DNA from: Desulfomonile tiedjei
GTDB taxonomy: Bacteria > Desulfobacterota > Desulfomonilia > Desulfomonilales > Desulfomonilaceae
Direction of reading: 5' to 3'
Assembly (NCBI GenBank): GCA_020718965.1
Contig: DYRE01000001.1
Span: 1-25,856, forward strand
Length of the DNA: 25,856 bases
Shown here: piece by piece, positions 3,272 through 21,465 of the stretch
Layout: the number at the start of each line of letters is the position of its first letter
Numbering within the stretch: the first letter of the stretch is position 1
Position numbers and translations under genes: made by a program
The notes under the pieces: generated by a model
Seen by the model: the letters and a program-made list of their open reading frames with translations, nothing else
Told to the model about the DNA's origin: nothing
The model's database searches: none

Positions 3272-3871
3272 GTGTTGAACGTGCGGATTATTTCGGGTAG
3301 CCTCAAAGGTAGACGTTTAACAGCGAGCGCAGGATCCAGAGTTCGACCTACTTCAGAGCGTGTTCGTGAGTCTCTTTTCAGCGTAATAGGGGATTATGTG
3401 ACAGGAATTGAAGCGCTGGATCTGTTTGCGGGTACCGGATCTCTTGGAATTGAGGCTTTAAGTCGCGGGGCTAAATCGGTCACTCTGGTAGAAAGGGACA
3501 GGAAGCTGGCGCAGAATCTTTATTCCCTGTGCTCGACTCTCGGTATTTTGCCTCAGGCGACAGTCATGAACATGGATGCAACAAAGGCCATAACCCTTCT
3601 GGCCAGACAAAAGTCGAAATTTGACATGATTTTTCTGGATCCACCCTATAATAGTGATTGGATACAAACTTTGTTCCGGCAGAATCTGTTTATTGATCTG
3701 GTGACGCCTGATGGATTTATAGTGGTTGAAACCGCAAAATATACAAACAGTGCGAGAATTATTGACCCCTTGACTTTTGAACAGGTATTTTCCAAATTGT
3801 ATGGCTCTTCACTTTTACAAATATTCAAGTTTGCCAAATCAGGGGTGACATTAAACACGGAGTCGAACTAA
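3272..3871 (+). CDS. rsmD: 16S rRNA m2G966 methyltransferase RsmD
   Basis: RIISGSLKGRRL, VRPTSERVRESLF, LDLFAGTGSLGIEALSRGA, IFLDPPY. True start is probably GTG at 3281 (VRIISG), preceded by AAGGTG. Confidence 0.95.
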   Translation: MLNVRIISGSLKGRRLTASAGSRVRPTSERVRESLFSVIGDYVTGIEALDLFAGTGSLGIEALSRGAKSVTLVERDRKLAQNLYSLCSTLGILPQATVMNMDATKAITLLARQKSKFDMIFLDPPYNSDWIQTLFRQNLFIDLVTPDGFIVVETAKYTNSARIIDPLTFEQVFSKLYGSSLLQIFKFAKSGVTLNTESN

Positions 3872-3875
3872 GACT

Positions 3876-4400
3876 ATGGTTAAAAAAGTAGCCATTTATC
3901 CTGGGACCTTTGACCCTTTTCACAACGGGCATTTAGAGATCATCAGGCGAGCTATGGGAGCCTTTGATCACATTGTAATAGCATTGGGAATGAATCCTGA
4001 AAAACAGACGCTATTTTCTTTGGAAGAGCGTTTAGACATGATTCGAAACACTGTCAACGGTGATCAGCGCATTTCAATTGACAGTTTTGAAGGGTTGTTA
4101 GTTAGGTATGCTGAAAAAAGAAAGGCGTGCGCCATAATAAGAGGTTTAAGAGCTGTTTCAGATTTTGAATACGAGTTTCAGTTGGCTCTAATGAATCGGA
4201 AACTAAGTCGAAAAATTGAAACATACTTTCTTATGACCGCCCACAGATATTTATATGTCAGCTCTAGAATAATAAAGGCAACCGTGTTTGCCGGAGGCTC
4301 TCCTGAAGGATTGGTTCCGGAGTACGTAATGAGAGTTCTCAAAGAAAGGTTTCCACAGATCGGGAATTCGCACGTAACAACTAACAAAGGTAGGAGATAA
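3876..4400 (+). CDS. coaD: Phosphopantetheine adenylyltransferase
   Basis: AIYPGTFDPFHNGHLEII, IIRGLRAVSDFEYE, VSSRIIK. Conserved rsmD-coaD order. Confidence 0.97.
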   Translation: MVKKVAIYPGTFDPFHNGHLEIIRRAMGAFDHIVIALGMNPEKQTLFSLEERLDMIRNTVNGDQRISIDSFEGLLVRYAEKRKACAIIRGLRAVSDFEYEFQLALMNRKLSRKIETYFLMTAHRYLYVSSRIIKATVFAGGSPEGLVPEYVMRVLKERFPQIGNSHVTTNKGRR

Positions 4401-14751: not shown

Positions 14752-15576
14752 ATGAGGCTGAAAATCCTCAAGGGTATTCAGGAGCAAGTCTTGATGTGGC
14801 ATGAGACGTTATCCCTGATTCTCAATTCAGTTTCCTCCGCTTTTATACCCGATCTCTGCCTGCTTTGCGGTTCTGAAAATCTGACGGGCTCCACCTCTGT
14901 TTGTAACGAATGCCGAACTTCTTTGAGATGGGTGACGCCTCCGATATGTGAGGTCTGTGGCAAGCCTCTTACGAAGTTGGAAGATGAGAATTCAACTGTA
15001 TGTGGAGCCTGTCTTTCAAGTCCACCGGCTTACGACATGGCCAGATATGGTCTATATTATGAAAAATCAGTGCGCGCTGCGATAACACGATTCAAATTCA
15101 ACGCGTTTCTCTACAGTTCCAGACCTCTTGCAGAGTTCTTAATTGAAGCTTTCGATAGATATTATGTCGATGGAAATTTTGATGTGATTCTTCCTGTTCC
15201 TGTTCACAAAAGGCGTTTGATGACCCGCGGATTTAACCAGGCCGTCATATTATCCCGGAAACTTTCGAAGGCAACAGGAATTCCTCTCGACAGAACGAGT
15301 TTGATTAAGACTAGAAACACGGAGCCTCAAGCCAGGCTGTCGCGTTCCCAACGGCTTTCAAACCTCACCAACGCATTTCAAGTAAAAAACGGAAATTCAA
15401 TGTCCCAAAAGAGGGTTCTTCTCGTGGACGATGTTTCTACGACTGGAGCGACAATAACTGAAGTTGCAAAAGTGTTACAAACCGCCGGCGCCAATTATGT
15501 GGGAGCACTCATTCTTGCCCTCAGGACGCGGGATGGATCTATCAACCCCAAACAAGAGGATATTGTGTATTCTTGA
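14752..15576 (+). CDS. comF: ComF family protein (double zinc ribbon plus phosphoribosyltransferase-like domain)
   Basis: CLLC, CNEC, CEVC, CGAC; PVPVHKRRLMTRGFNQA; RLSNLTNAF; LLVDDVSTTGAT. Start may be ATG 14794. Confidence 0.9.
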   Translation: MRLKILKGIQEQVLMWHETLSLILNSVSSAFIPDLCLLCGSENLTGSTSVCNECRTSLRWVTPPICEVCGKPLTKLEDENSTVCGACLSSPPAYDMARYGLYYEKSVRAAITRFKFNAFLYSSRPLAEFLIEAFDRYYVDGNFDVILPVPVHKRRLMTRGFNQAVILSRKLSKATGIPLDRTSLIKTRNTEPQARLSRSQRLSNLTNAFQVKNGNSMSQKRVLLVDDVSTTGATITEVAKVLQTAGANYVGALILALRTRDGSINPKQEDIVYS

Positions 15577-15662: not shown

Positions 15663-17123
15663 ATGGCGCTAAAAACACCAGAAGAATTTGAAGCAAGTCT
15701 AAAAAAAAGAACACCCAGGGTATTTATGAACGGGAAACGAGTTGAAAACGTTCTTGAGAACCCTAACACTCGGACAGTTTTCGAGTCTAACAAAGCCAGC
15801 TACGCATGGGCGCTGGATCCGGAATATTCAAAGATAATGACCTGCTATTCGCCTCTCATAAATGACACAGTCAACCGTTACACTCACGTTAGTTCAAGTG
15901 TTGAAGATCTGGTGGCCAAAGCTGAAGCTGGAACTTTCACAGCCGAAAATTTGGGTACGTGTATATACAGATGCGCAGGATATGACGCATTTCACTCTTT
16001 GGCGTCAACAACATGGGAAATGGACCGTGATTTGGGCACACAGTATCATCCCAGATTCCTGGATTATCTCAAAATGGTCCAGAGCGAAGATCTGTCCGTA
16101 GCCGGGGCATTGACGGAGCCGAGAGGTCACCGCATGAAAAGAGCCATCGATTGGCCTGACCCTTACCTGGCATTGAAAGTGGTTGAAAAGAATTCAGAGG
16201 GCATTGTCGTTAGAGGCGCCAAGATTAACATCAGCGGAGCCTACGCCAGTCACGAACTGGTTGTTCTTCCGCAGGGAACAAGGACTGAAGACGAGGCTGA
16301 TTACGCTGTAGCGTTTGCCGTTCCTTCAGACGCTGAGGGAATTACCTACGTGTGTCAGTATTCGCCATATTCCGCAGAGAGAGATTTGGCTGAGAGTCTG
16401 GAGGAACTTGGCAATCCCGTTTTTGGACAGCGCGAAACATCCATGGTTGTTTTTGACAATGTATTCGTACCTTGGGAAAGGGTTTTTCACTGTGGCGAAA
16501 CCCCATATTCCTGGAATCTTGTGTCCCGTTTTGCTCGCACACATCGGATGACGTGTGGAGGCACCTGTAAAGTTGGCTTCATGAATCAAATCATCGGGGC
16601 ATGCAAACTTATTCAGGAATACAAGGGACTCGAACAGGTTCCGCACATCAACGAAGAATTGACCGAGATGCTAGTGCTTCGGGAGACCGGAAGGGCCTGC
16701 GGGCTGGCAGCGGCTCGTTTGGGGACAGAAGATCCTGTCGGATCCGGAGTCTTCTTACCTGATGAATTGATGGGAAATGTCTCAAAGCTCAATATTTGCA
16801 ACGCCTTCTGGCGGGTTATGGCTCTGGCTGGTGATATCGGCGGTGGTCTTATTGTTACAATGCCATCTTTAAAAGAACTGAAAAATCCCGAAACACAGCG
16901 CTATGTTGAGGAGTTTTTCAGCTTTGGATCTGATAGCCCCACCGAAGATATTTTAAAGACGCACAAGTTGCTGCAAAACTGGACGGCCGGACAGCATGGT
17001 GTTGGAACATGGCATGGAGCCGGCCCGGTAATGGCCCAGAAGATTATGATAGAAAGAATCGCCGATTTCGAGCATGAGAAAAATCTCGTTAGAAAAGTCC
17101 TCAACCTGAAAGGAAATTCTTAA
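15663..17123 (+). CDS. 4-hydroxybutyryl-CoA dehydratase / 4-hydroxyphenylacetate 3-hydroxylase family FAD- and [4Fe-4S]-protein, non-canonical active site
   Basis: CIYRC, GALTEPRG, GIVVRGAK, VVFDNVFVPWERVF, HRMTCGGTCKVG, HGAG...AQKIMI. AGGAG RBS. Confidence 0.9.
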   Translation: MALKTPEEFEASLKKRTPRVFMNGKRVENVLENPNTRTVFESNKASYAWALDPEYSKIMTCYSPLINDTVNRYTHVSSSVEDLVAKAEAGTFTAENLGTCIYRCAGYDAFHSLASTTWEMDRDLGTQYHPRFLDYLKMVQSEDLSVAGALTEPRGHRMKRAIDWPDPYLALKVVEKNSEGIVVRGAKINISGAYASHELVVLPQGTRTEDEADYAVAFAVPSDAEGITYVCQYSPYSAERDLAESLEELGNPVFGQRETSMVVFDNVFVPWERVFHCGETPYSWNLVSRFARTHRMTCGGTCKVGFMNQIIGACKLIQEYKGLEQVPHINEELTEMLVLRETGRACGLAAARLGTEDPVGSGVFLPDELMGNVSKLNICNAFWRVMALAGDIGGGLIVTMPSLKELKNPETQRYVEEFFSFGSDSPTEDILKTHKLLQNWTAGQHGVGTWHGAGPVMAQKIMIERIADFEHEKNLVRKVLNLKGNS

Positions 17124-17162: not shown

Positions 17163-17954
17163 CTATTTTTCTGAACCCTGATTCATAGAAAAATGGTAAA
17201 CCGCGTCCAAAGCTTGGTATGGGCCAACCTGTGCCCCATATTGCGAGATAGGGTATCGTATGCCTCGCCGAAAAAGAGTGTCAAGATTCTTTAGTATCCT
17301 GCCGCAATCTTCGGGCGGAAGCCCTATCGCAAGCTCATCGTCAGACGCGTGGCCAAATCTTCTTTCACCATAACAGGGGATTGATAGAGCTGGTTCACGA
17401 TTTAGGAAACATCTACCTATGACATCTGAACATGATGTTTCCCCCACTGAGTAAAAAACGAGCCTTTTAAATTTGTCATACTGGATCGCATTTATCATCA
17501 GGGACATTTGCGCCGGATTTCCGTAAATGAGCGTAATGTCAGGCTCAAACGGATCGTATGCCAACGGAGCTAACATGAACGCTTTATACTTGCCGTATGG
17601 TATGCGTTGTATGATTGATTCGCAATAAGCAGCGTCCTCCTGCTTTTCCAACCAGACCTTGCTCCGCATTTCACCACTTGTTACAAACGGGTCAAGTTCA
17701 GACAAACCAAGGACAGATGCGCATCCCTGTGTGACAAGGTCGTCAGCGGTTCCTCCAATAGTCCAGTCAAAAGTTCTTACTATTGTTATCAATTGACAAA
17801 GGGAAAGCTTCTCTGTTGGACGTCTCAACCATTTGTTGGATTTGAGTTCTTCCTCGGTTTCCAATAACTTCAATCCTACGGGAAAAGACTTTAAACGCAA
17901 GAAACGTTCCATCCCCTTGGTCCATTCGGACCACTTGATCTTTTCATTTTCCAT
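17163..17954 (-). CDS. DUF169 family Cys-motif protein
   Basis: LRLKSFPVGLKL, LCQ, GCA..LG, PDITLIYGNPAQM, SCSD, SIPCYGERRFG, DELAIGLP. Confidence 0.85.
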   Translation of the reverse strand: MENEKIKWSEWTKGMERFLRLKSFPVGLKLLETEEELKSNKWLRRPTEKLSLCQLITIVRTFDWTIGGTADDLVTQGCASVLGLSELDPFVTSGEMRSKVWLEKQEDAAYCESIIQRIPYGKYKAFMLAPLAYDPFEPDITLIYGNPAQMSLMINAIQYDKFKRLVFYSVGETSCSDVIGRCFLNREPALSIPCYGERRFGHASDDELAIGLPPEDCGRILKNLDTLFRRGIRYPISQYGAQVGPYQALDAVYHFSMNQGSEK

Positions 17955-17996
17955 TTCTTTTTTCCTCTCAAACTAACGGAGGCCGGTTAACGAAGT

Positions 17997-18623
17997 TTAT
18001 TTTGCCCGCTCCAGAGAGAACTGGCGGTTCATGATGGCCTCAATCAATTCTCTCTCATTGCTTACAGGATTGTGTAGGATGGTAACGCAAGTACCGACAG
18101 CTTCAACAGAGTGAGCGTCGCTTCCGCCAACCTTTATGAGACCTAAAGCGTCCGCTACCTGCCCAGCGAAATTGTTCTCCTCATCGGTCACTTTCCCATT
18201 ACATACTTCTACCGCATGCACTTGTGATAGTGTCGGATTGTCAAGAGCGTCGCTGACATTCATCTGAAGCATGCCGAAGCCAAACAGCAGGAATCCTCGA
18301 AAGGGATGAGCCGCTATGGCAAGGCCATTTTCAGCGTCAACAATCTTCTTGAGTTGTTGGGGCGTTAACAACCCTTCAGGTTCCGTTTCAGTTCCAAAAA
18401 CAAGTATGTCCCCTCCGGTTGTTGTGACTTCAATGCCTCTGAATACTGCTATTCCATACTTCTGGCTGAGTTCATCGGCTTTTTCAGCGCTCCAGACCCG
18501 ATTGTGCTCAGTCAGACAGATTCCATCGAGGCCGGCTTGAACAGCGGCCACCATCATTTCATCGGGAGTCATCTCGCTACAGGGTGATAACGCGCTAGTA
18601 TGATTATGAAGGTCTATCTTCAT
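17997..18623 (-). CDS. PHP-domain metal-dependent phosphoesterase
   Basis: IDLHNHT, GLDGICLTEHN, GIEVTT, AAHPFR, VEVCNG, GGSDAH. Confidence 0.9.
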   Translation of the reverse strand: MKIDLHNHTSALSPCSEMTPDEMMVAAVQAGLDGICLTEHNRVWSAEKADELSQKYGIAVFRGIEVTTTGGDILVFGTETEPEGLLTPQQLKKIVDAENGLAIAAHPFRGFLLFGFGMLQMNVSDALDNPTLSQVHAVEVCNGKVTDEENNFAGQVADALGLIKVGGSDAHSVEAVGTCVTILHNPVSNERELIEAIMNRQFSLERAK

Positions 18624-18636
18624 GGGTTTACCAACC

Positions 18637-19113
18637 TCATAAATTGTCAGGATTAAGTTTCATTATGGTTTTCAATTCCGGGTTCTCCAGAAAAAATGTT
18701 CGCACAAAGTTAACAGCATCCAGGTCCGGATTTGACTGTAGCTCTGAAGTCAGGTTTCTTACAAGTTCCGCTCGAACCAGGCTCCTTATGCTGTCGACCA
18801 TCAATATAGCCAAATGTCGGCAACCATTGCGGCCAAGCTCTTTCTTGATTCTTCCTTCAACCTGCGAATCAATCTTCCAACCCTCAGCTTTAAGGAAAAC
18901 AGGTTCGGCAAGAACGCATCTGACGGTTGTGAATCGCTTGATTCTAGCCTGGACTGACTCGATAGTCCGACTGGGCCAATCCACACTGATTTCACATTGC
19001 ATTGCATAGAGTTCGTCTTCCAGCACGCCGGAAACCACTCTTCGTGATTCTCCCTGTTTTTGAACCCCGCATGACTTCATCCTGGAATATATTGGCATAC
19101 TTTTTAGATCCAA
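18637..19113 (-). CDS. DUF2889-like protein (paralog A: carries C66 and GCRH)
   Basis: LEDELYAMQCEISVD..TIESVQA...RC...GCRHLAILM pattern. TTG start with GGAGG RBS 8 nt upstream. Confidence 0.72.
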   Translation of the reverse strand: MDLKSMPIYSRMKSCGVQKQGESRRVVSGVLEDELYAMQCEISVDWPSRTIESVQARIKRFTTVRCVLAEPVFLKAEGWKIDSQVEGRIKKELGRNGCRHLAILMVDSIRSLVRAELVRNLTSELQSNPDLDAVNFVRTFFLENPELKTIMKLNPDNL

Positions 19114-19127
19114 TTTTCGTTCCTCCC

Positions 19128-19640
19128 TTAGTCGATGTTTTGGAAAGCGGCGCAGCTATCTTTCAGCCGGGGGTTGGCTCCAAGGACTTTGATCATCTCT
19201 GGGCCGATGACCACATCGTTGAGAAATATTTTTGGGCCGTCGCCGGAGGCTCTGATTTGTTCACCTCCTTTAATAGCCGCCTTCTCCAGTTCCTGAACTG
19301 TTATGGCGTTAACAAGCATTTCCATGGCTTCCAGCACAAGATCAGAGATCCAGTCGGATCCTTTGGGGCCTCCAACCAGTTCCCGGACAATTTTTGTCAT
19401 GCCCGGCCCCACTCTCACGCCGACGAGCTTCTCAGCCAATGAAGACATCTCCGGAATTACTCCCATAACGTCTCTTTTGACAGTAATGAGTGATTTCCTG
19501 ATATCCAGTGTTGGGGCCTTAATTTCCAGATTTATTGAGACCCCTAGTAAATTGTCTCCAGCAGTCAACTCCACTGACCATGTGCCAGGTCCTGATTCGG
19601 TTACAGTTGTGAGACTGTTCATCTGAAAATCAACTATCAT
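19128..19640 (-). CDS. DUF2889-like protein (paralog B: carries only the C-terminal DSC Cys)
   Basis: KLVGVRVGPGMTKIVRELVGGPKGS..I.DLVLE and LKDSCAAF resemble the DUF2889 core and tail. Strong GGAGGTG RBS. Confidence 0.7.
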   Translation of the reverse strand: MIVDFQMNSLTTVTESGPGTWSVELTAGDNLLGVSINLEIKAPTLDIRKSLITVKRDVMGVIPEMSSLAEKLVGVRVGPGMTKIVRELVGGPKGSDWISDLVLEAMEMLVNAITVQELEKAAIKGGEQIRASGDGPKIFLNDVVIGPEMIKVLGANPRLKDSCAAFQNID

Positions 19641-19686
19641 TTCCGATCACCTCCAATGGGATCAATAAATTGCCTTGGTCCGTTTG

Positions 19687-20247
19687 TCATAACAAGCTTC
19701 CAATGAGGATTTTGACTCCAATTATAATCAGAACTACTCCTCCTATCCTTTCCGCCCACTTGCCCAGTCGTTTTCCAGCTTGATTGCCAAGTTGAATTCC
19801 GAGCAGAGTCATTACGAATGCAATAAATCCTATAAGCAGCACGGGAAACAATATGTCCTTTTGGCCTATGAGACTGAAGGAGATACCTACAGCCAATGCG
19901 TCCAAACTGGTGGCGACAGATAGACCTACCAAACTCCATCCTTTAGTTGGGTCAAATCCTTCAAGGCGCTCTTCCTCACTTCCAGATTCCTTGAACATCT
20001 TTAATCCGATAAAGGTCAAGAGTCCAAAGGCAATGCAATCGTTCAGTCCCCAGAACATATCGAAAATCGCTACTCCGCTCAACCAGCCGACATACGTCAT
20101 CAGTGATTGGAATAGTCCAAAATGCCAGGTAAGCCTGAAAATATGCCTGAATGTGACATTGATCAGACCACTGGCAACAGCGAGCGCAACAGCGAACGCA
20201 TCCATGCCCAAAGCGATGGCTACACCTAAAAGGGTCAGATTATCCAC
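19687..20247 (-). CDS. mntP: Manganese efflux pump MntP
   Basis: IALGMDAFAVALA, FGLFQ..M..VGW, GLKMFKE, ATSLDALAVGIS, G..AE.IGG..LI.IG. ORF track gives 19687-20502, but homology begins at GTG 20247 (186 aa). Confidence 0.92.
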   Translation of the reverse strand: MDNLTLLGVAIALGMDAFAVALAVASGLINVTFRHIFRLTWHFGLFQSLMTYVGWLSGVAIFDMFWGLNDCIAFGLLTFIGLKMFKESGSEEERLEGFDPTKGWSLVGLSVATSLDALAVGISFSLIGQKDILFPVLLIGFIAFVMTLLGIQLGNQAGKRLGKWAERIGGVVLIIIGVKILIGSLL

Positions 20248-20291
20248 TAGTTGATGTTCCCATGACTTAATGTGTAGATTCCCGCAGCCTG

Positions 20292-20321
20292 AATGTAACA
20301 AATGCCCCCAACCTGCGTCAA
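20292..20321 (-). promoter_or_regulatory. Probable sigma70 promoter for mntP cluster
   Basis: Minus strand reads TTGACG-N18-TACATT with a TGn extended -10 element, ending about 45 nt above the GTG start. Confidence 0.5.
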
Positions 20322-20472
20322 CAAAGGAAAGAATAAATCTAGCTAAGGACAGGTTTTTAGAAACATGGAGCAGTCGGGTTCCGTATAATGAATTAATGTT
20401 AGGGATGTCGCCAATAGGTGAGTATATTGCCGAGTGGACATTTTTTGTGGTAATTGCTTGAATCATCGTTAA

Positions 20473-21465
20473 ATGGAAGTGGAGCCTATGGGAATTGGAC
20501 ATTTACACTCTGATAAAAATTCCGCCAATAAATCTGAAGATCGAGCGCAAGCCCGCATTGCCATCGCTTTTCTGATTACTTGCGTATACATGGTTGTCGA
20601 GACAATTGGTGGGATCGTATTTAACTCTTTGGCTCTACTTGCCGACGCTGGACACATGTTTTCCGACGCAATGGCGCTTGGGGTTTCCTGGTTTGCGATT
20701 CGAATCGGGAAACGTAATGCGAATGATCGGCTCACATACGGATTTAGAAGAGCGGAAATCCTTGCGGCTTTCTTAAATTGCATAGCTCTCTGGGCAATAG
20801 TGGTATGGATCTTTTACGAAGCGATCCAGCGGATATTTACTCCAGGACCGGTAGAGGGAATTGGCATGTTTTCGGTTGCCACGTTGGGTTTGGTGCTGAA
20901 TCTCGCCATAGCGGCGGTCCTTTTTTCGAAGCGTCAAGAAAGCCTTAATGTCAAGGCCGCCTTTCTGCATGTTCTGTCGGATGCTCTTGGGTCGATAGGA
21001 GCGCTGGTGGCGGGTCTTATTATAATATGGACGAGCGCTTTCTGGATCGATCCGGTCATTAGCCTTCTCATAGGCGTCCTTATACTGATATCCTCCGGGA
21101 GTCTTCTTCACGAAACGGTAAACATTCTCATGGAAGGGGTTCCCAAGGGAATGGACGTGTCAGCCATAGAGGCGGAGATAGCGAAAATTGATGGTGTTTG
21201 CTGTGTTTACGATTTACACATCTGGAATATTTCAAGCAAACAGGTTAATCTTTCGGCTCATGTGGTCCTATCGGAAAGATGCCAGGATTCCGAAAGAATA
21301 CTGCGGGAAATCGGACAAATGGTGAGGAGAGATTTTGGTGTAAGCCATTCGACAATTCAGATTGAGACTTCACACGATAACAAGTGGCTGTCTGATCCCA
21401 GGTTTTGCCGACCAGGAACCTCGTGCGAAGCACGAAATTACCGAAGAACAGAACCCGGGGTGTGA
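20473..21465 (+). CDS. Cation diffusion facilitator (CzcD/ZitB-like Zn/Co/Cd exporter)
   Basis: SLALLADAGHMFSD (HxxxD), RLTYGFRRAEILAAF, AAFLHVLSD (HxxxD), DLHIW, HSTIQIE. Start could be ATG 20488. Confidence 0.93.
   Translation: MEVEPMGIGHLHSDKNSANKSEDRAQARIAIAFLITCVYMVVETIGGIVFNSLALLADAGHMFSDAMALGVSWFAIRIGKRNANDRLTYGFRRAEILAAFLNCIALWAIVVWIFYEAIQRIFTPGPVEGIGMFSVATLGLVLNLAIAAVLFSKRQESLNVKAAFLHVLSDALGSIGALVAGLIIIWTSAFWIDPVISLLIGVLILISSGSLLHETVNILMEGVPKGMDVSAIEAEIAKIDGVCCVYDLHIWNISSKQVNLSAHVVLSERCQDSERILREIGQMVRRDFGVSHSTIQIETSHDNKWLSDPRFCRPGTSCEARNYRRTEPGV

Follow-up and report, generated by a model that had tools for sequence, protein, structure and literature searches.

A conserved DUF2889-PHP-DUF169 gene unit of Desulfomonile tiedjei and its link to dephospho-CoA kinase in other lineages

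Introduction

Which of the five closely spaced genes at 17163-20247 in a stretch of Desulfomonile tiedjei DNA belong together, and what could their products do? The stretch (25,856 nucleotides; NCBI GenBank assembly GCA_020718965.1, contig DYRE01000001.1, positions 1 to 25,856 of the forward strand; below, at its whole length, the window) carries on its minus strand genes for an MntP-family protein, two DUF2889 (PF11136) proteins, referred to here as A and B, a small PHP phosphoesterase and a DUF169 (PF02596) protein. MntP exports Mn2+, and PHP enzymes need Mn, Zn or Fe. An initial annotation, made from the sequence alone, took the five genes for a co-transcribed module, either one whose Mn exporter guards or tunes the metalation of proteins with cysteine ligands or a novel anaerobic enzymatic pathway, and did not recognise the gene set as described; in keeping with the latter, the literature searched describes no function for DUF2889 or DUF169. 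Here we show that the conserved unit consists of four of these genes, without mntP, and that in other lineages it is joined to the gene of dephospho-CoA kinase (CoaE), the last enzyme of coenzyme A (CoA) synthesis.

Results

Four of the five genes form a conserved unit

The source genome is a metagenome-assembled genome, 82% complete, whose closest relatives are Desulfomonile or Desulfomonilaceae. The run of genes and its upstream promoter candidate are:

17163-17954, minus strand: DUF169 protein, 263 amino acids (Pfam E 2.8e-49)
17997-18623, minus strand: small PHP phosphoesterase, 208 amino acids (Pfam PHP and PHP_C; signature AHPFRGF)
18637-19113, minus strand: DUF2889-B, 158 amino acids, TTG start (Pfam 27.4 bits)
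19128-19640, minus strand: DUF2889-A, 170 amino acids (Pfam 22.8 bits)
19687-20247, minus strand: mntP-family gene, putative Mn exporter, 186 amino acids, GTG start (Pfam Mntp E 1.1e-43)
20321-20292, minus strand: sigma-70-like promoter of mntP, TTGACG-18-TACATT (consensus scan; in the divergent mntP/CDF region)

The layout reported in the initial annotation was reproduced throughout. The coordinates of the open reading frames matched five co-oriented minus-strand genes, the gaps measured were again 46, 14, 13 and 42 nucleotides, and a Pfam check returned the domains proposed there, with DUF2889-A just below the cut-off of 25 bits. Ribosome-binding sites, which had been recognised for most of the genes, are of the GGAGG or GAGG type and precede DUF2889-A, DUF2889-B, PHP and DUF169. 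A sequence scan found no terminator-like site in any of the module's gene junctions, as had been claimed; the sole such site on the minus strand, at 17729-17708, lies inside DUF169 and is at chance level (2 found versus 3.7 expected). The candidate promoter upstream of mntP was also recovered, and its -35 and -10 elements are kept in a relative (L108).

An initial view of DUF2889-B homologs and their contigs gave A-B-PHP-DUF169 as intact and mntP as variable. A profile of the B family was run against 401 Desulfobacterota genomes, and 60 loci were fetched from the matching ones; additionally, the PHP signature [AMV]AHPFRGF[LK] was scanned over ~185,000 species genomes, which yielded 324 confirmed species, and 80 loci were fetched. 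The loci were annotated by phmmer with the window genes, and contig genes with precomputed Pfam assignments, as queries. After duplicates and truncated loci had been dropped, 89 non-redundant loci were compared, 40 of them Desulfomonilaceae-like (DUF2889-B at least 55% identical) and 49 from other lineages:

DUF2889-A present: 39/40 Desulfomonilaceae-like, 47/49 other lineages
DUF2889-B present: 40/40 Desulfomonilaceae-like, 49/49 other lineages
DUF169 present: 38/40 Desulfomonilaceae-like, 39/49 other lineages
CoaE in the operon: 0/40 Desulfomonilaceae-like, 34/49 other lineages (33 fused to DUF169)
DUF2889-B fused to PHP: 0/40 Desulfomonilaceae-like, 28/49 other lineages

A gene of the DUF2889-A type stood 5' of DUF2889-B in 86/89 loci, the order A-B-PHP was kept in 86 to 89 of the 89, and DUF169 came next in order on the same strand in 77. 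Apart from A, B, PHP, DUF169 and CoaE, no gene family recurred beside the core across lineages in this comparison. As mntP and the CDF gene divergent from it adjoin the module almost only in Desulfomonilaceae, and as nothing else recurs across lineages, the conserved unit is made of four genes, DUF2889-A, DUF2889-B, the 208-amino-acid PHP and DUF169 (17163-19640), and not of five. The proposed five-gene system thus holds for a strongly conserved four-gene part that co-occurs across lineages, and fails for mntP. The operon of the window is a split form, the rule among the Desulfomonilaceae-like loci, of a widespread three-gene module composed of DUF2889-A, a B-PHP fusion and a DUF169-CoaE fusion. 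The initial annotation had missed dephospho-CoA kinase, the partner that does recur across lineages.

Natural fusions link the module to dephospho-CoA kinase

An exhaustive search with DUF2889-B, followed by Pfam assignment, identified five B-PHP fusions (P0136, P0146, P0150, P0159 and P0161), in which DUF2889-B is N-terminal to the PHP domain, and four A-B tandem fusions (P0125, P0137, P0138 and P0174). On contigs that bear fusions, the order is A, then B-PHP, then DUF169-CoaE. The CoaE domain carried by the DUF169 orthologs in the 33 loci of other lineages is complete: the fused CoaE domains scored 182-191 bits with the dephospho-CoA kinase equivalog TIGR00152 (CoaE family PF01121), whose cut-off is 65.6. 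Moreover, three genomes of 98% completeness or higher (G045, G206 and G354) have no CoaE other than the DUF169-CoaE fusion. Within the Desulfomonilaceae, one genus (G239) has its DUF169 gene out of the operon and fused to CoaE at a separate locus (L103:697-2115). In two of the loci found (L010 and L084) an A-B pair lies beside a stand-alone CoaE without PHP or DUF169. Canonical CoaE, in contrast, is a single-domain enzyme without DUF169, PHP or DUF2889 partners. These arrangements make a general link of the module to CoA metabolism probable.

In G239 the DUF169-CoaE gene adjoins a gene of the metallo-beta-lactamase fold, and the A-B-PHP operon (L041) lacks DUF169. The order A-B-PHP-CoaE-DUF169, with CoaE and DUF169 unfused, was seen in four metagenome-assembled loci labelled Methanobacteriota (L161, which shows no DUF169), Halobacteriota (L176), Spirochaetota (L180) and Desulfobacterota (L083), and could result from gene transfer or from a binning error; most of the compared genomes are metagenome-assembled, and the archaeal, Armatimonadota and Spirochaetota examples (L161, L175, L176 and L180) are few and may be binning errors.

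By analogy with the eukaryotic fusion of phosphopantetheine adenylyltransferase and dephospho-CoA kinase, we considered DUF169 as a replacement of phosphopantetheine adenylyltransferase, and rejected this idea, because all five genomes tested (5/5) have a normal, canonical CoaD.

A kinase of the CoA pathway coupled to a metal-dependent phosphatase has a precedent, which serves here as a lead only. In PanK4-type systems such a kinase is coupled to the metal-dependent phosphatase DUF89, whose proposed role is to clear phosphorylated intermediates that are damaged or in excess. The likeness lies in the physical or genetic coupling of the two activities; the protein families are unrelated.

The PHP protein is a small phosphoesterase of its own type

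The initial annotation had pointed to candidate metal ligands in PHP, in DUF169 and in the DUF2889 pair, and in all of them these residues proved conserved in alignments. The PHP protein belongs to the PHP superfamily (PF02811 and PF13263), with 38.9 bits versus a cut-off of 26.4 for PHP (E 1.5e-9) and 57 versus 21.3 for PHP_C (E 1.4e-15). Among 41 homologs D4, H6, H8, H40, E65, H106, D169 and H171 are invariant, and C15 is near-invariant (conserved at 90% or more). The nearest solved relatives are of the TrpH/YciV/Cv1693 type (PDB 3e0f, 9etk, 7ug9 and 2yb1; profile E 1.5e-10 to 2.5e-5). Enzymes of this type act on nucleotides.

The module protein shares with these enzymes (COG0613) the PHP fold with its HxH, H, E, H and DxH metal ligands, and JGI labels its fused homologs 'metal-dependent phosphoesterase TrpH'. 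It differs from them in being only 208 amino acids long, in the near-invariant Cys15, in its own AHPFRGF signature and in scoring far below the equivalog cut-offs for 3',5'-bisphosphate nucleotidase and RNase RNM. It passed no equivalog test that was run; with CehA/McbA (NF038032) it came close, at 72.8 versus 80 bits over residues 2-199. We know of no characterised PHP enzyme that is covalently joined to DUF2889, as the module PHP is in more than half of the loci outside the family. The predicted substrate would be a CoA-family nucleotide from which PHP removes a phosphate (for example the 3'-phosphate of CoA, of acyl-CoA or of 3',5'-ADP), which we put forward as a tentative and rather doubtful assignment.

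DUF169 carries conserved cysteines

The window DUF169 protein scored 168 bits with its Pfam family versus a cut-off of 27. With DUF169 domains that are fused to CoaE it shares 43-52% of its residues, and with the second copies of DUF169 found in L072 and L080 only 25-26%; by identity, therefore, it is a member of the CoaE-associated subgroup. Two of its cysteines, C53 and C194, are invariant, and two more, C78 and C175, are conserved at 90% or more. Elsewhere in the family, ESM Atlas clusters show DUF169 joined to a ferredoxin, URO-D or CoaE domain, and in several large clusters the fusion is to [4Fe-4S] ferredoxin domains. Such fusions suggest that DUF169 is a redox-linked domain.

The predicted DUF169 model (predicted local distance difference test, pLDDT, 87.9) had no Foldseek match (best E 0.058), a sequence search of the PDB returned no match, and the only match among Swiss-Prot models was the uncharacterised MJ0308. 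VIA-align hits to the DUF169 model, mostly thiolase/ketosynthase folds with a best Z of 4.6, were treated as noise. The predicted complex of A, B, PHP and DUF169 scored 0.06 for DUF169 as a partner, a value that weighs neither way.

The DUF2889 pair may share one metal site

DUF2889-B passed the PF11136 cut-off of 25 bits. DUF2889-A did not, but its homology is supported: the B-family profile, run on relatives, hits their A genes with E values of 1e-12 to 1e-25, and proteins that are natural A-B tandems reach 66-81 bits for DUF2889 over two stretches. In DUF2889-B, C66 and C98 occur in 118 of 119 distinct sequences and H100 in 117. The only conserved cysteine of DUF2889-A is the C-terminal C163, which lies in the motif NPRLxxSCAAF (NPRLKDSCAAF in the window) and is found in 111/112 sequences; the internal cysteine pair is present in 35 of the 112 A sequences, absent in 72 and half-present in five. 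To judge by these alignments, the window DUF2889-A is a DUF2889 paralog in degenerate form, its internal Cys/Cys site lost.

The cysteines of the two proteins varied together across the related genomes from which this covariation is drawn. Among unfused pairs in which DUF2889-A has its own cysteine pair, DUF2889-B has a C-terminal cysteine in 19/22; among those in which DUF2889-A lacks the pair, as in the window, DUF2889-B has a cysteine at the motif position in 0/52 and elsewhere in the tail in 4/52. Such a reciprocal pattern would be expected if the C-terminal cysteine of each subunit completed the site of its partner. We infer that A and B of the window would pair as a heterodimer that holds a single site, of the Cys3His type, for a metal or an Fe-S cluster.

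A site of this kind brings to mind a scaffold of Fe-S cluster assembly, and the whole module could be read as a device for the assembly or delivery of a metal or Fe-S cofactor, in which A/B would be an IscU-like scaffold, DUF169 its cluster-carrying partner or target, and PHP and CoaE would be linked to it by regulation only. In addition to the Cys3His pattern, the four conserved cysteines of DUF169 and the many ferredoxin fusions of its family agree with this. The DUF2889-B model (pLDDT 94) resembles the IscU/SufU/NifU-N scaffolds in having a predicted beta-sheet followed by helices, with Cys/His ligands at the helix starts; it aligned with IscU, NifU-N and SufU in VIA-align (Z 5.1-6.7 over 77-103 residues) and gave weak Foldseek rows for IscU (E 0.4-0.7). 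However, Z below 8 is the range that the tool itself assigns to a common arrangement, and unrelated proteins with FAD/FMN domains scored level with the scaffolds. There is no detectable sequence relation to these scaffolds either: the B-family profile, run against PDB sequences, returned no match. A Foldseek search against the PDB with the B model gave no match, the AFDB clusters of DUF2889-B contained DUF2889 and PHP-fusion entries only, and an ESM Atlas feature search returned the DUF2889 and DUF169 families only. Also unlike the known scaffolds, the proposed fourth ligand would come from the partner subunit, and the neighbourhood holds no Isc or Suf genes and no recurring cysteine desulfurase, chaperone or ATPase. 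As this reading would also leave a covalently fused PHP hydrolase without a role, we regard it as unlikely.

mntP belongs to a lineage-specific metal-homeostasis block

Further features of the window are:

20473-21465, plus strand: CDF-family (ZitB-like) cation exporter (Pfam Cation_efflux and ZT_dimer; TIGR01297 286 bits)
15663-17123, plus strand: HpaB/AbfD-like flavoenzyme gene, convergent on DUF169
14752-15576: ComF-like gene
3876-4400, plus strand: canonical coaD (TIGR01510 178 bits), directly 3' of the rsmD-like methyltransferase gene
3272-3871, plus strand: rsmD-like methyltransferase gene

The mntP and CDF genes of the window belong to the families of MntP and CDF metal exporters. The MntP-type protein scored 149 bits with the Pfam Mntp family, and 83.5 bits with the MntP equivalog NF008546, versus a cut-off of 214; its open frame extends to 20502. 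Within ~6 kb of the module, mntP was found in 29/40 Desulfomonilaceae-like loci, in 13 of them directly upstream, and in only 1/49 loci of other lineages. It is a lineage-specific upstream neighbour of the module and not one of its core parts. The partner of mntP is instead the divergent CDF exporter gene, which was found in 14/40 Desulfomonilaceae-like loci and 1/49 others; the two genes, with or without an importer, make up a metal-homeostasis block that adjoins the module almost only in Desulfomonilaceae. No Mn riboswitch of the yybP-ykoY type was found in the mntP leader, either at the Rfam gathering score over the window, where no Rfam family matched at that score, or at E up to 1 over 19600-20520, and a search of the mntP/CDF intergenic region for operators found nothing but a 10-nucleotide palindrome at the mntP start codon.

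The system postulated at the outset, with all five genes co-transcribed and MntP tuning or guarding the metalation of the Cys-ligated proteins and of PHP, is consistent with a 46-nucleotide gap between mntP and DUF2889-A that contains no terminator or promoter-like site, with the closeness of mntP to the module in most of the family, and with the established metal requirement of PHP enzymes. In addition, ~14 of the mntP-bearing Desulfomonilaceae relatives have an Mn/Zn-type ABC importer (ZnuA/TroA type) in the same co-oriented run, between mntP and DUF2889-A. But mntP is almost absent beside the module outside the family and directly adjacent to it in a minority of loci inside, and several family members (L003, L129, L137 and others) are without it. 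Seven relatives, furthermore, have a separate sigma-70-like promoter element (TTGACWTT...-10) ~100 nucleotides 5' of DUF2889-A, and mntP, whose partner is the divergent CDF exporter gene, has a conserved promoter of its own. Because of the distribution of mntP, the importer insertions, the separate promoters and the CDF pairing, the idea is left with synteny at the level of one family, and membership of the Mn exporter in such a system is very improbable. In the window genome mntP may still be co-transcribed with the module.

The importer block (L121:1123-4851; also in L042, L115, L117, L120, L128 and others) consists of four extra co-oriented genes, which encode a ZnuA/TroA-type binding protein, a 167-amino-acid protein outside any Pfam family, an ABC ATPase and a permease of the ABC-3 type with a fused DtxR-type metal-binding domain at its C-terminus. 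In the window, a perfect TATAAT (19721-19726, minus strand) lies inside the 3' end of mntP, ~81-86 nucleotides 5' of the DUF2889-A start codon, which is about the distance of the -10 element in the relatives; a good -35 is absent.

Acyl-CoA genes and other neighbours

Genes of acyl-CoA metabolism near the module suggest a different role: the module could serve an anaerobic pathway of acyl-CoA or aromatic acids as an accessory, by activating or maintaining a neighbour, such as the AbfD/HpaB-like enzyme, an acyl-CoA ligase or an amidohydrolase-2 decarboxylase. In L008, L069 and L070 the module is directly preceded by genes for TetR, AMP-ligase and Amidohydro_2; L007, L168 and L173 have ECH/HMGL genes on the upstream side; in loci of Desulfarculaceae, PHP is followed by genes for ADP-forming acyl-CoA synthetase; and an HpaB/AbfD-like gene, convergent as in the window, is present in 26/40 Desulfomonilaceae-like loci. 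However, the HpaB-like gene occurs in only 1/49 loci outside the family and is oriented against the module; the neighbours beyond the core vary widely, and none of them recurs across lineages; AMP-ligase is present in only 9/89 loci, and these genomes are generally rich in acyl-CoA genes. An accessory role of this kind is, in our estimate, quite unlikely.

In seven Desulfarculaceae-type loci (L053, L059, L061, L064, L078, L177 and L179) an FMN-reductase-like gene is directly 5' of DUF2889-A, and no DUF169 is downstream; the ADP-forming acyl-CoA synthetase-like gene is directly 3' of PHP in L061 and ~2.4 kb downstream in L064. DUF6125 (PF19620), a family of unknown function, is encoded within 11 loci (L055:2661-3401 and ten others), most of which carry the fused form of the module, and was placed upstream of DUF2889-A where checked. 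The ComF-like gene and a SAM hydroxide adenosyltransferase-like gene are each found in ~30 of the Desulfomonilaceae-like loci. Some 13 kb, with genes of both orientations, separate coaD from the module, and we read its presence in the same window as coincidence.

Discussion

The module is best read as encoding a soluble metallo-phosphoesterase complex that would be linked to the metabolism of CoA or 3'-phosphoadenylate. The conserved gene order, the natural fusions, the equivalog-level score of the fused CoaE, the cysteine covariation, the PHP ligands and the ferredoxin fusions of DUF169 all support this reading. Taken as a whole, an A-B-PHP-DUF169 unit with an A/B metal heterodimer, a PHP phosphoesterase and a link to CoA is the explanation to which we give somewhat better than even chances; the Mn-guarded system, the Fe-S scaffold and the acyl-CoA accessory are all weaker.

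In such a complex, A and B would pair as a heterodimer; of the ligands of its Cys3His site, three (C66, C98 and H100) would lie in B and the fourth (C163) in the C-terminal tail of A. The dimer would be docked on the PHP phosphoesterase with its multinuclear metal centre, and the four-cysteine DUF169 may work with, or on, dephospho-CoA kinase; the dimer, its docking and the DUF169-CoaE partnership are deduced from the fusions and the covarying cysteines. The PHP step could then run counter to the CoaE reaction or serve in recycling for it, with the 3'-phosphate that CoaE installs as its simplest target, and the two Cys-rich modules might tie the step to the metal or redox state. In its most specific form, this would be a hitherto undescribed enzyme system by which anaerobes control the 3'-phosphorylation of CoA-type nucleotides, with a PHP phosphatase gated by the heterodimeric DUF2889 Cys3His centre and opposing, or recycling for, a CoaE coupled to a redox-active DUF169, a proposal that we offer as speculative and on balance unlikely.

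Several observations weigh against the metallo-phosphoesterase reading. The window DUF169 has no CoaE domain, and the family of the window lacks the CoaE fusion in its operon, with a stand-alone CoaE elsewhere in the genome (on another contig for the window). The PHP protein scored 44.7 versus 400 bits with the 3',5'-bisphosphate nucleotidase equivalog NF041577, over residues 2-69 only. A phosphatase that opposes CoaE would run a futile cycle unless regulated. DUF169 is not nearby in 12/89 loci, which is a statement about the loci searched, as the gene may sit elsewhere in those genomes, and the Desulfarculaceae-type loci have an FMN reductase upstream instead. The locus maps, moreover, were built from the longest open reading frames and our own set of queries rather than from curated gene calls, and because related genomes are not independent, the locus counts overstate the number of separate events.

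The locus comparison corrects the idea of Mn export as a part of this system, and places DUF169 and DUF2889, both widespread families, in a firm context for the first time, with PHP as a constant partner and, for most lineages, covalent attachment to CoaE. It also defines a biochemical target, a four-protein complex with one predicted Cys3His site and few candidate substrates. If the control of 3'-phosphorylation proved true, it would be the first function for two widespread families of this kind. As the sole dephospho-CoA kinase of some relatives among the sulfate reducers is part of the module, an essential step of CoA synthesis is in these organisms embedded in an uncharacterised system.

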